Of a stretch of 32,064 nt of DNA, positions 16,649-19,067 are shown in pieces. Source of the DNA: a virus. The DNA is taken from IMG/VR virus record IMGVR_UViG_3300037184_000101, positions 1-32,064 of that record, one strand, 5' to 3'. How positions within the stretch are numbered: position 1 is the first letter of the stretch; every line of letters starts with the position of its first letter. The notes beneath the pieces are model-generated. The model saw nothing but the letters and a program-made list of their open reading frames with translations. It was not told the DNA's origin and ran no database searches. A program made the position numbers and the translations under genes.

Positions 16649-17110
16649 TTATTTTAATTCGGCGATTGCATACCGCTTGTATTCCTCTTCGGAAAACTGC
16701 CGAATGCCCCGCAGAGCACTTGAGCTAACATGTTGATACTTGGGATCGCAGAGGAAGAAGACCACTTTGATTTGAGGGTATATATTCCTCATGAAGGCGA
16801 CGAGATTCTGCTCATACGCCAAGTCGGCACCGCTGCGGAGACCACGAATCAGAGTAACATCACGACTTTTTCCTTCGTAGTTTTTAACGAGGTCGGTCAC
16901 AAGTCCCTCATGACTAGTGACTAAAACTTTCATCGCTCGAAGGAAGTCCTCGGGAAGTTTGATTTGCGGATACTTTTTATCAGGATTGACTGCCCGAACC
17001 ACAAGCACTTCATCAAAAACCTTTTGAGCCTGACAAACGATGTCAAGATGCCCAATGTGAAAAGGATCAAAACTTCCAGGGTACAAACCAAGTCTGGTTT
17101 TCATGTCCAC
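16649..17110 (-). CDS. coaD: phosphopantetheine adenylyltransferase (CoaD/PPAT)
   Basis: GLYPGSFDPFHIGHLDIV (H/TxGH motif). The segment VTLIRGLRSGADLAYEQNLVAFMRNIYPQIKVVFFLCDPKYQHVSSSALR closely parallels E. coli CoaD [49 protein letters not shown]. Confidence 0.8.
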   Translation of the reverse strand: MDMKTRLGLYPGSFDPFHIGHLDIVCQAQKVFDEVLVVRAVNPDKKYPQIKLPEDFLRAMKVLVTSHEGLVTDLVKNYEGKSRDVTLIRGLRSGADLAYEQNLVAFMRNIYPQIKVVFFLCDPKYQHVSSSALRGIRQFSEEEYKRYAIAELK

Positions 17111-17610
17111 AATCCATTTCTATTCTTAACGACCCACACCATGATTTCAGTCTGCAAGTCGTAGATTTCTCTTTCGAGGCGGTTAATCTTACCGTACATC
17201 CTCTCGTAGTCGTCCTTCGTGGAGTTGTTGATGTCTTTCAGAGTTCGATGCGGAACAGTGTCCCACTCCGCATCTAACTCCTTTTGAAGGGCAGGTAACT
17301 TTTGAGTGATTAACTCGTAGTTGCGTCTGACCTCTGCGTAAAATTCTCGTTGCTCTTCGCATTCAGTGTTAATAACATTCATGCAATCCTCGCCCTCGGG
17401 GTCAACGTAATGCTTGAGACTTTCGAGGACAGTGATTTCCAGAATGGTATCCTTGTCGCACCACGTACGAGGAATCTTACTTGTGAGCCACTTATTGCGG
17501 GGCCACAGGCGAGACGACACTTGTTTATACCAAACATCGTGCCACCAATAATGGTTAAATGGTCGGAACTTGTAATTGCTCCATTCGTAAAATCGGTCAA
17601 GTAGGCTCAT
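17101..17610 (-). CDS. hypothetical Trp-rich protein
   Basis: 169-aa ORF in an operon between the kinase-like gene and coaD, with a 10-nt overlap. Confidence 0.5.
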   Translation of the reverse strand: MSLLDRFYEWSNYKFRPFNHYWWHDVWYKQVSSRLWPRNKWLTSKIPRTWCDKDTILEITVLESLKHYVDPEGEDCMNVINTECEEQREFYAEVRRNYELITQKLPALQKELDAEWDTVPHRTLKDINNSTKDDYERMYGKINRLEREIYDLQTEIMVWVVKNRNGLWT

Positions 17611-17620
17611 AATTATCCTA

Positions 17621-18100
17621 TTACGTGTTACAGTGCGTTGGCCCCTTCAAGTACGCACAGAGAAGTTGAAATGCTTCGTCTTCGCTGCGTCCACCACCCG
17701 TTTTGATACAAATGCAATTAGTGGTTATGGGAGGTTCAAAATCTTTAACGAAATAGCTCTCACGACCCCGAACGTCGCTTGTATAAACGTAGATTTCTTT
17801 CAAATCTTTCCGAGACGCTTTGAACTCTTCTCGCACGTCTCGATACGGATTAACTGTGGAGACAATGACATGAACGCCTTGGTCTGCCACATGTGCCACG
17901 AATCGCTGGAGAGCACGGGTCTGCTCAATGCGATAGTCCTTGGACAGATTCTCCGTAGTGTAAGGGACCGCAAAAATCCTACGGAGGTCGTCGCCATCCA
18001 AATGAATGGAGTGATTGCCTTTCACATCGAACTCTTTCTTGAGTTTTCGTGCTAGTGTAGTTTTGCCACTGCCACTTTGTCCTATGAACCAGTATATCAT
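17621..18100 (-). CDS. P-loop kinase, adenylylsulfate (APS) kinase-like
   Basis: Walker A GQSGSGKTTLA, then LDGDDLRRIF...DYRIEQTR...VIVSTVNPYRDVRE. These parallel the APS-kinase motifs LDGDNVR / DRxENIRR / SPYRxxR. Confidence 0.55.
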   Translation of the reverse strand: MIYWFIGQSGSGKTTLARKLKKEFDVKGNHSIHLDGDDLRRIFAVPYTTENLSKDYRIEQTRALQRFVAHVADQGVHVIVSTVNPYRDVREEFKASRKDLKEIYVYTSDVRGRESYFVKDFEPPITTNCICIKTGGGRSEDEAFQLLCAYLKGPTHCNT

Positions 18101-18264
18101 AACTTTTTTATTGGCTTACTCAGCCATTCGAGAAACCTTCGATAACATTCACCACACAAATGATACTTGATGACGGTGCCATTCAAGTCTCGTGGTGGAG
18201 AGAATACCAGACCACCGGGCATTGTCAACTCCTTTCCACACTTTACACAGATAACGCAAATCAT
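18097..18264 (-). CDS. small zinc-ribbon protein, probably on a leaderless mRNA
   Basis: 55 codons MICVICVKCGKEL...HLCGECYRRF. ATGA overlaps with both neighbouring genes. The ATG lies about 7 nt downstream of a perfect TATAAT. Confidence 0.4.
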   Translation of the reverse strand: MICVICVKCGKELTMPGGLVFSPPRDLNGTVIKYHLCGECYRRFLEWLSKPIKKL

Positions 18265-19067
18265 GGTGCCATTATAACAGGACTTCGCATTTTGTCAATA
18301 GATGTTTTGATGTCATCTACGCCGCCATAGAAGATTTTAACCTTATGTGTATCCATTACATATTTCAATTTCGGTAAATCCCGTTGTAGGTAATAATCGT
18401 TTTTGGGGTCGAGATAAACATCGAAGTCGGGTAGGTAGAAGTCGGGGAAGTATTTTCTCTCATCACCGTTCGCATCAATCCACCTGAACATATGACGTTT
18501 TTTGCTTCTGTCCCACTTTATTCTTTCGGCATCCATCCACTTCGCCAACTCGACTTCCCAACGGGAATCCATTTTATATCCCCGATATGGAAACCGTCTA
18601 TACCCAAGTTTTCCACCACAGTTGGGGTTGTTGCGAGACCATTGGCTAACAAGTTTTCCGTAGCATTCATCACTACAAGTTTTCTTAATCTCGGCATTGC
18701 TTTTTACGAGATGAAAAAATTTCTTATCGCATACTACACAAACGAACTCCTTCTGCCTCGGAAATGTTCTTGGTCTCTGGACTGATTGCTTATGGACGAG
18801 TGGATTGGTTTTAGATTGAGCATATTTTACTGCACAATCTACACTACAACATTTTCTCGCCTTTTTATGTGTCGTTGTCTCAAAATCATTTTTACACCAC
18901 AAGCATTTAGACATCACTTTTTCATGAGATGTATGATTAGATGATTGAGAGCAAATGCGGGAGCAATAGAAATAATCACGCCCATTACGGGCTTGACGAT
19001 TGTATTCCTTTAGAGGAAGTGAAAACGGAGTTTCACATTTATGACAGATTATTGATGTCATATTCAT
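18261..19067 (-). CDS. putative homing endonuclease: three YCSxxC zinc-ribbon modules plus a PD-(D/E)xK-like nuclease domain
   Basis: CHKC...YFYCSRICS, CLWC...KCCSVDCAVKY and CVVC...TCSDECYGK repeats. C-terminal YFPDFYLPDFDVYLDPK resembles PD..(D/E)xK. C-terminal half similar to the 26362 ORF. Confidence 0.45.
   Translation of the reverse strand: MNMTSIICHKCETPFSLPLKEYNRQARNGRDYFYCSRICSQSSNHTSHEKVMSKCLWCKNDFETTTHKKARKCCSVDCAVKYAQSKTNPLVHKQSVQRPRTFPRQKEFVCVVCDKKFFHLVKSNAEIKKTCSDECYGKLVSQWSRNNPNCGGKLGYRRFPYRGYKMDSRWEVELAKWMDAERIKWDRSKKRHMFRWIDANGDERKYFPDFYLPDFDVYLDPKNDYYLQRDLPKLKYVMDTHKVKIFYGGVDDIKTSIDKMRSPVIMAP
18271..18298 (-). promoter_or_regulatory. consensus sigma70 promoter TTGACA-N16-TATAAT (leaderless start)
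   Basis: Minus strand: TTGACAaaatgcgaagtcctgtTATAATggcaccATG. Located within the 3' end of the upstream endonuclease gene. Confidence 0.55.

Follow-up and report, generated by a model that had tools for sequence, protein, structure and literature searches.

Modules in which a kinase and an adenylyltransferase complete a cofactor are already known. Adenosine 5′-phosphosulfate (APS) kinase phosphorylates the 3′-OH of an adenosine whose 5′-phosphate bears a further anionic group, as in APS itself. The phage NAD+-rebuilding pathways NARP1, NARP2 and NARP3 have been described as counter-defence, and the NadR-like enzyme of NARP3 combines NMNAT with ribosylnicotinamide kinase (PMC13464706). AvrRxo1, a kinase, phosphorylates the 3′-OH of the adenosine ribose of NAD (PMC5491322, PMC5087710). 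The locus described here lies in a stretch of viral DNA of 32,064 nt (IMG/VR record IMGVR_UViG_3300037184_000101, positions 1 to 32,064), the whole of which is referred to as the window. Its conserved core pairs a P-loop kinase of the APS-kinase family with a CoaD-family phosphopantetheine adenylyltransferase (PPAT). The best single explanation, which we hold tentatively, is that the PPAT and an APS-kinase-derived 3′-kinase together complete coenzyme A (CoA); it is placed ahead of an RNA-end kinase that merely neighbours an independent PPAT. This reading draws on gene order, a promoter match, family membership, conserved residues, a predicted fold and the recurrent linkage of such kinases to nucleotidyltransferases.

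Organization of the locus and its conserved core

A preliminary description of this sequence had placed four open reading frames (ORFs) here, and all four were confirmed in the sequence, close-packed on the minus strand behind a putative promoter:

18298-18271, minus strand: putative sigma-70-type promoter, with TTGACA at 18298-18293, a 16-nt spacer, TATAAT at 18276-18271 and an extended -10 TG (TGtTATAAT)
18097-18264, minus strand: Zn-ribbon ORF of 55 aa with four cysteines (Cys4, CVKC...CGEC), a variable accessory gene outside the core
17621-18100, minus strand: P-loop kinase of the APS-kinase family, 159 aa, from a phage-specific short-lid clade; the proposed dephospho-CoA 3′-OH kinase
17101-17610, minus strand: X169, a predicted all-helical protein of 169 aa, lineage-restricted and variable
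16649-17110 from GTG (153 aa) or 16649-17104 from ATG (151 aa), minus strand: CoaD-type PPAT

The promoter proposed for this operon, TTGACA-N16-TATAAT, is present as an exact 12/12 consensus match. It is the sole perfect match in the 32-kb window, where 0.06 would be expected by chance, and its function is deduced from this agreement with the consensus. It sits within the 3′ end of an upstream HNH-type homing-endonuclease-like ORF (18261-19067). Its -10 hexamer ends 7 nt before the ATG of the Zn-ribbon ORF, which would therefore be leaderless or nearly so. Translational coupling had been proposed for all four genes and holds for some junctions. The Zn-ribbon stop and kinase start overlap as ATGA, as do the X169 stop and PPAT start when the PPAT begins at ATG 17104, the 151-aa start being the gene call on an identical Logan contig. 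Kinase and X169 do not overlap and are separated by a 10-nt gap with AGGA inside it.

The viral loci and contigs compared with the window carry L-numbers here. Related contigs, from phages of about 340-401 kb, keep kinase ... PPAT in this order upstream of PhoH, and the trio kinase-X169-PPAT recurs in many contigs. This recurrence, together with 765 kinase homologues and 63 X169 homologues, shows the genes to be real. The position between kinase and PPAT is occupied by X169, by an unrelated 130-aa ORF (c30), by a TylF-like methyltransferase, by other small ORFs, or by nothing (L042, L124). Because the Zn-ribbon ORF is sporadic, X169 restricted and the intervening genes variable, the core consists of kinase and PPAT and not of four genes. 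The earlier notion of a single four-gene functional unit is accordingly given up, the Zn-ribbon ORF and X169 being variable inserts.

A homologue of the Zn-ribbon protein (61% identity) was found in one other contig only (fetched as L023 and L120), where it precedes X169 and the kinase is missing; this sporadic occurrence ruled out the Zn-ribbon protein as part of the unit. Profile searches with it gave no family above threshold, and the 'long' kinases of about 205 aa carry a C-terminal extension and no N-terminal Zn-ribbon. X169 has 63 homologues and no domain, and its model, predicted to be all-helical, gave generic coiled-coil matches only and no informative fold match. BLASTP and hhalign detected no homology between X169 and c30 (L024 7578-7982 and relatives). 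Both proteins fill the same slot, end in LWT/LWW and have a common TW.(L/D)D-like motif.

The PPAT and its kinase partner

On sequence grounds the last ORF is accepted as a CoaD-family member, as had been proposed. It scores 105.5 bits against the CoaD equivalog model TIGR01510 (cutoff 103.3; residues 8-141 on profile 2-137 of 155) and matches Pfam CTP_transf_like. A PDB sequence search returned 34 PPAT structures (E 2e-20 to 5e-12), all matches being PPATs, and nothing closer. In an alignment of 12 phage PPAT homologues with the E. coli enzyme (A2), the equivalents of Tyr7, Thr10 (as Ser), Phe11, His18, Lys42, Arg88, Gly89, Arg91 and Ser128-130 are invariant or nearly so. These residues bind ATP and the 4′-phosphate of phosphopantetheine, as established by structure and mutagenesis, and Thr10, Lys42 and Arg88 are the 4′-phosphate ligands (PMC12784347). 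Their counterparts in the window PPAT are Ser13 (conservative for Thr10), Lys45 and Arg89, and the Lys and Arg are invariant in the 12 phage homologues. The HxGH region reads PFHIGH and includes the equivalent of the catalytic His18, with G20 and H21 invariant in A2. The ligands of the ATP beta- and gamma-phosphates, Arg91 and Ser128-130 (ISSS), are kept across A2 and appear in the window as RGLR and HVSSS. Of the two motifs quoted in the preliminary description, HxGH is thus present, as FHIGH, but ISSS is really VSSS (in HVSSSALR).

In Caulobacter phages a gene for nicotinamide phosphoribosyltransferase (NAMPT) lies about 4 kb away from PPAT, which prompted the idea of a disguised NMNAT, along the lines of NARP2. 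NMNAT and NadD models score at most 26.8 bits on the window PPAT against cutoffs of 112-409, and this candidate was ruled out by profile scores and residues.

For the kinase, sequence profiles and predicted fold agree on the APS-kinase family, in keeping with its first assignment. Pfam APS_kinase (PF01583) gives 60.3 bits against a threshold of 21.1, covering only residues 2-107 (profile 4-109 of 152). A PDB sequence search returned APS kinases only, and the predicted structure has the APS-kinase fold. The motifs reported earlier, GQSGSGKTT, LDGDDLR and NPYRDVRE, are all present. D34, D36 and R39, in the HLDGDDLR segment that follows the Walker A motif GQSGSGKTT, are invariant in 101 sequences. 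The family as a whole keeps Walker A, LDGDxxR, an acceptor-loop (F/L)(S/T)xxxR, VNP (for ISP) and a terminal (F/Y)ExP. The acceptor-loop motif aligns with the GFSxxxR segment of a solved APS kinase, whose Phe and Arg presumably contact APS. The APS lid KGLYKKAR...FTGI is gone, and a short RGRESYFVKDFEPP segment (the RGRE loop) stands in its place.

Without the lid, and far under the cutoff of the CysC equivalog (TIGR00455, 62.8 against 138.7 bits; best subfamily model 73.6 against 127), this kinase thus represents a divergent branch of the APS kinases, specific to phages, and is not CysC. A true CysC making 3′-phosphoadenosine 5′-phosphosulfate (PAPS) was rejected on the CysC cutoff, the missing lid and the absence of a nearby sulfurylase. 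No ATP sulfurylase was found among the window ORFs scanned, and the adjoining transferase is PPAT-like. Of the profiles suggested in the preliminary description, CoaD was matched above its equivalog cutoff and CysC at the level of Pfam but not of the equivalog; CoaE was not matched, and neither sequence nor fold makes the kinase a member of that family (PF01121). Profile searches also did not place it in an unrelated P-loop family, the outcome that the preliminary description had named as refuting its reading: polynucleotide kinases of the T4 Pnkp/HD-Pnk type show no specific sequence or fold similarity to it and score no better than unrelated P-loop kinases. The Pfam Zeta_toxin model gives 40 bits against a threshold of 22.3.

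The kinase family is large: a threshold of E<=1e-5 gives 765 homologues, and the wider one of E<=0.001 gives over 6,500 representative clusters, probably with ordinary APS kinases among them. Databases label its members 'adenylylsulfate kinase-like' or just 'kinase'. A GTDB genome search with the kinase found three metagenome-assembled genome contigs only and thus offers no bacterial context for comparison. In a neighbour-joining tree of kinase domains the clades separate by partner type, and the PPAT-associated clade of the window kinase has a private acceptor-loop insertion of 4-5 aa, G.Y.K.E(H/N)FTKEYR. Some kinases of this clade (P0010, P0020, P0041, P0051, P0094; 202-213 aa) bear a conserved C-terminal extension of about 55 aa (…VSNV.IGG…GGFP…).

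Genomic contexts of the kinase and the PPAT

Context was tallied by us from a table of 83 sources, namely the window and 82 fetched viral loci, with some contigs fetched twice. In about 67 of the 83 loci, a member of the kinase family has an HxGH nucleotidyltransferase either beside it or fused to it. The partner is a PPAT in 11 loci; a small NMNAT-like HxGH transferase (GRWQPWHxGH ... NPFT ... ISATKIR) follows the kinase in 31; and kinase and NMNAT-like transferase are fused into one protein of 250-290 aa in about 25. The kinase lies near RNA ligases in 6 loci and has none of these three partners in 8, while 2-3 loci are without a labelled gene. The kinase-NMNAT-like fusion corresponds to PHROG 10255; cultured phages of Xylella, Stenotrophomonas and Xanthomonas carry it under the annotation 'kinase'. 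One such fusion (L077) has a full-lid APS-kinase domain scoring 149.9 bits, above the CysC-domain (apsK) cutoff. Among the best 150 kinase representatives, the fusions were kinase-NMNAT-like, kinase-HAD and one kinase-methyltransferase. Both types of module occur together on one 401.5-kb contig (L159, CACVFR010000001.1): at 9541-13408, kinase-X169-PPAT is followed 1.7 kb downstream by a 241-aa APS-kinase-NMNAT-like fusion. Since this contig carries both, the kinase-PPAT and kinase-NMNAT-like modules differ in specificity and are not redundant.

The PHROG 10255-type family joins an APS-kinase-like domain to a mini NMNAT-like transferase, as fusions (L077-L109), as adjacent genes (L044-L075) and in cultured Salvovirus/Sanovirus (L110/L111). 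An HAD phosphatase is often present around these genes, and 2OG-Fe(II) oxygenases often flank them. In Sanovirus phages the gene upstream of the fusion gene, and overlapping it, encodes a protein with a NADAR domain (NAD- and ADP-ribose-associated, YbiA-like).

Viral contigs were also scanned for PPAT and for CoaE, the canonical dephospho-CoA kinase (DPCK). A gap of 7 nt separates a PPAT (112.9 bits) from the canonical CoaE (77 bits) after it in L140/L152 (contigs of 230 and 416 kb), and in L141 (a 309-kb contig) PPAT and a CoaE (139 bits) are 4 kb apart. A single-polypeptide PPAT-CoaE fusion is encoded at L142 7001-8170 (Pfam 78.5 + 79.9 bits), and a second at L188 5512-6699 matches it at 1e-64 (phmmer). 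These PPAT-DPCK fusions are prokaryotic-virus analogues of eukaryotic CoA synthase. The PPAT adjoins CoaE-like kinases in L138 and L135 as well. The repeated occurrence of PPAT with CoaE in other huge phages therefore supports, independently, a phage need for a DPCK beside PPAT. In the window lineage an APS-kinase relative holds the place of CoaE beside PPAT; no CoaE homologue was found in the window, nor on any window-lineage contig among those returned by the CoaE scan.

L134-L138, L147, L165, L169, L170 and L189 carry an HD-like domain (HRYYHN..H...FHD.IYDP) that is uncharacterised; it is joined to the N-terminus of PPAT, sits between kinase and PPAT in a 496-aa triple fusion (kinase-HD-like-PPAT), or stands alone near CoaE. 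The domain fused to PPAT gave no Pfam, NCBIfam or PDB sequence match. It may represent a third step of a phage CoA-related pathway, and one idea is that it releases 4′-phosphopantetheine from acyl carrier protein.

The surrounding genes and the related contigs of 340-401 kb identify the window as part of an uncultured jumbo-phage lineage. Its neighbouring genes include PhoH, a baseplate-J-like protein and a vault/SPFH-like protein of 850 aa (27745-30297, minus strand) with matches to the major-vault-protein shoulder (68 bits), Vault_3 and SPFH/Band-7. A nucleotide search against cultured phages gave zero matches, and no cultured relative was found for a conserved structural protein of the lineage. 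The module had been called uncommon in phages, which is true of cultured phages but not within this lineage.

The four genes are embedded in an array of 18 tRNA genes (window 14350-31797, all minus strand), and an Rfam search of the region found tRNAs only. Homing-endonuclease-like ORFs lie among the tRNAs: the HNH-like ORF at 18261-19067 and a PD-(D/E)XK ORF at 31304-31717, both in the minus-strand array, and an endonuclease-I-like ORF at 26362-27195 on the plus strand. Downstream on the minus strand lie two more near-consensus promoters (TTGACA-N16-TGnTATATT), at 16637-16610 upstream of tRNA-Ala (16173-16248) and at 14751-14724 upstream of tRNA-Gln (14638-14711). These suggest that host sigma-70 drives the entire tRNA/accessory region. 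A dual-specificity-phosphatase-like ORF at 23074-23553 (minus strand) matches DSPc at 29.7 bits, below the gathering score; close relatives have, at the equivalent position, a gene with PTP-NADK and PTP-SAK matches, the equivalence being one of position.

Proposed pathway, competing explanations and known systems

Under the proposed mechanism, a host-type promoter would drive a short operon whose conserved core comprises the APS-kinase-family kinase and the CoaD-family PPAT. The PPAT would join ATP to host 4′-phosphopantetheine to yield dephospho-CoA, and the kinase would then phosphorylate the 3′-OH of its adenosine ribose to yield CoA, as a non-orthologous replacement for CoaE. The chemistry would fit, because dephospho-CoA has an APS-like head group with a larger tail that the shortened lid could admit; the short lid and the clade-specific acceptor-loop insertion may together make room for the bulky pantetheine arm. 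The Zn-ribbon protein and the helical X169 would be variable passengers. The phage may benefit by raising or restoring the CoA pool during infection. We infer both substrates, the order of the steps and this benefit.

Several points weigh against this proposal. Every host has its own CoaE, which puts the selective value of a second DPCK in doubt. The PPAT lies only 2 bits above the TIGR01510 cutoff. The lost lid took with it the second stacking Phe and the KGLYK lysine, so the kinase sequence does not reveal how the acceptor is recognised, and the acceptor-loop Phe is replaced by Leu in the window kinase. The two genes also occur apart, with PPAT lacking the kinase in L115, L118-L120 and L125 and the kinase lacking PPAT in L026, L032, L034, L035, L037 and L041. 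No kinase-PPAT fusion was found among the best 150 kinase representatives. The preliminary description had suggested that the pair completes CoA. The PPAT-CoaE pairs and fusions and the linkage of kinase to HxGH enzymes speak for that suggestion, while the separate occurrences, the missing lid and the distance from the CysC equivalog speak against it. Its observations are therefore confirmed and its interpretation partly supported; the family calls were right and the pairing is meaningful.

The kinase-only loci bear on a different reading, in which the kinase phosphorylates 5′-OH ends of cleaved tRNA or other RNA together with phage HD phosphoesterases and RNA ligases, and the PPAT is an independent auxiliary metabolic gene in a shared tRNA/accessory region. 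Same-clade kinases have a YhaM-like HD protein and a PHA02142/PF09414 RNA ligase as neighbours in L026/L032/L035, and Rnl1-like ligases in L034/L037/L041, and no other (polynucleotide) kinase was found in these six ligase loci. The YhaM-like HD protein matches PDB 9h3f (E 2e-12), and in the kinase-only loci the genes that separate kinase from RNA ligase had no informative Pfam matches. In L039/L040 kinase and HD gene are directly adjacent. Fusions to PNKP-like HAD phosphatases occur in related kinase clades, the module of the window lies inside a tRNA array, and the HD-kinase-ligase layout resembles the Runella HD-Pnk repair cluster (PMC6097658). Related jumbo phages, however, carry these ligase loci as homologous accessory regions, and the adjacency may therefore reflect position alone. 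The window itself holds no RNA ligase or HD gene, and the kinase is by sequence and fold a relative of APS kinases and not of polynucleotide kinases. The pervasive adjacency and fusion with HxGH nucleotidyltransferases would be left unexplained. We regard this reading as unlikely.

Two further alternatives keep kinase and transferase in one pathway and alter its chemistry. The pair might make some other 3′-phosphorylated adenylylated product, a small molecule other than dephospho-CoA or a 5′-adenylylated RNA end, with the PPAT-like enzyme adenylylating a different phosphomonoester. The borderline PPAT score leaves room for this, as does the pairing of the kinase family with at least two HxGH transferase families and with HAD phosphatases. 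AvrRxo1, which 3′-phosphorylates NAD, is a zeta-toxin-like kinase (PMC5491322, PMC5087710), and the window kinase exceeds the Zeta_toxin threshold. Conservation of the 4′-phosphate-holding residues, and of the whole PPAT core, argues otherwise, and the PPAT-CoaE pairs and fusions of other phages point to CoA. A different product seems improbable. The order of the steps could instead be reversed. In the RibF, RfaE and CDP-choline pathways a kinase acts before the nucleotidyltransferase. The same holds for the usual order in NadR and for the phage NadR-like enzyme of NARP3 (PMC13464706). In such a scheme the kinase would phosphorylate pantetheine or another free alcohol, the PPAT would adenylylate the product to dephospho-CoA and host CoaE would finish. 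Sister clades pair the kinase with NMNAT-like enzymes and could be nicotinamide-riboside kinase plus NMNAT. The conserved APS-kinase acceptor-site motifs, however, favour a nucleotide acceptor with a ribose 3′-OH, and the second kinase found next to phage PPAT is DPCK, not PanK. Moreover, 4′-phosphopantetheine is already present in cells. Of the explanations considered, this kinase-first order appears the least probable.

If the pair does make CoA, giant phages would be replenishing a second central cofactor. Recruitment of an APS-kinase scaffold as a DPCK would add one more non-orthologous solution for that step, and a large kinase family would gain its first functional foothold. Should the kinase act on RNA ends instead, it would represent a new polynucleotide-kinase lineage. 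More broadly, and with considerable doubt, the short-lid APS-kinase relatives might form a new family of adenosine-ribose 3′-kinases for ADP-linked cofactors, with dephospho-CoA as the substrate of those that accompany a PPAT, and NAD or a dinucleotide related to it as that of the NMNAT-like fusions. The giant-phage module would then amount to a 'CoA reconstitution' system analogous to NAD+ reconstitution, keeping CoA up or replenishing it, perhaps in the face of a host response depleting CoA or 4′-phosphopantetheine. A literature search found no paper on a phage PPAT/DPCK module or on a CoA counterpart of the NARP pathways. What is new beside the known cofactor-completing modules is an unusual kinase in a phage setting, not found described in literature searches.

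Comparison with known systems places the locus between several of them. T4 Pnkp and Runella HD-Pnk share with it the proximity of some window-kinase relatives to HD phosphoesterases and RNA ligases, HAD fusions in related clades and the tRNA-array location; they differ in that the window has no ligase, HD or HAD gene and its kinase no specific sequence or fold similarity. AvrRxo1 and the zeta-toxin kinases belong to the same broad P-loop group, but APS kinases are much closer to the window kinase, and neither an antitoxin-like partner nor evidence of toxicity was seen. NadR and the NARP3 enzyme likewise join a kinase, in a phage in the latter case, to an HxGH adenylyltransferase for an adenine-dinucleotide cofactor, and sister clades of the window kinase are fused to NMNAT-like domains. 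In contrast, the window transferase scores as PPAT and not as NMNAT (26.8 bits against cutoffs of 150-240), its kinase comes from another P-loop family, the sister-clade fusions have the reverse domain order, and there is no PnuC transporter.

CysC has in common with the window kinase the fold, Walker A, LDGDxxR, the acceptor-loop F/L-S/T-x3-R and (I/V)xP. PAPS synthase, which unites APS kinase with ATP sulfurylase, resembles the window in pairing the kinase with an adenylyltransferase of the HxGH superfamily. Both differ from it in the equivalog score (62.8 against 138.7), the short RGRE loop for the lid, the 4-5 aa acceptor-loop insertion and the partner, which is PPAT and not sulfurylase. 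Bacterial CoaD with CoaE, and eukaryotic COASY, carry out the same two reactions as those proposed for the window pair, whose PPAT belongs by sequence to the CoaD family.

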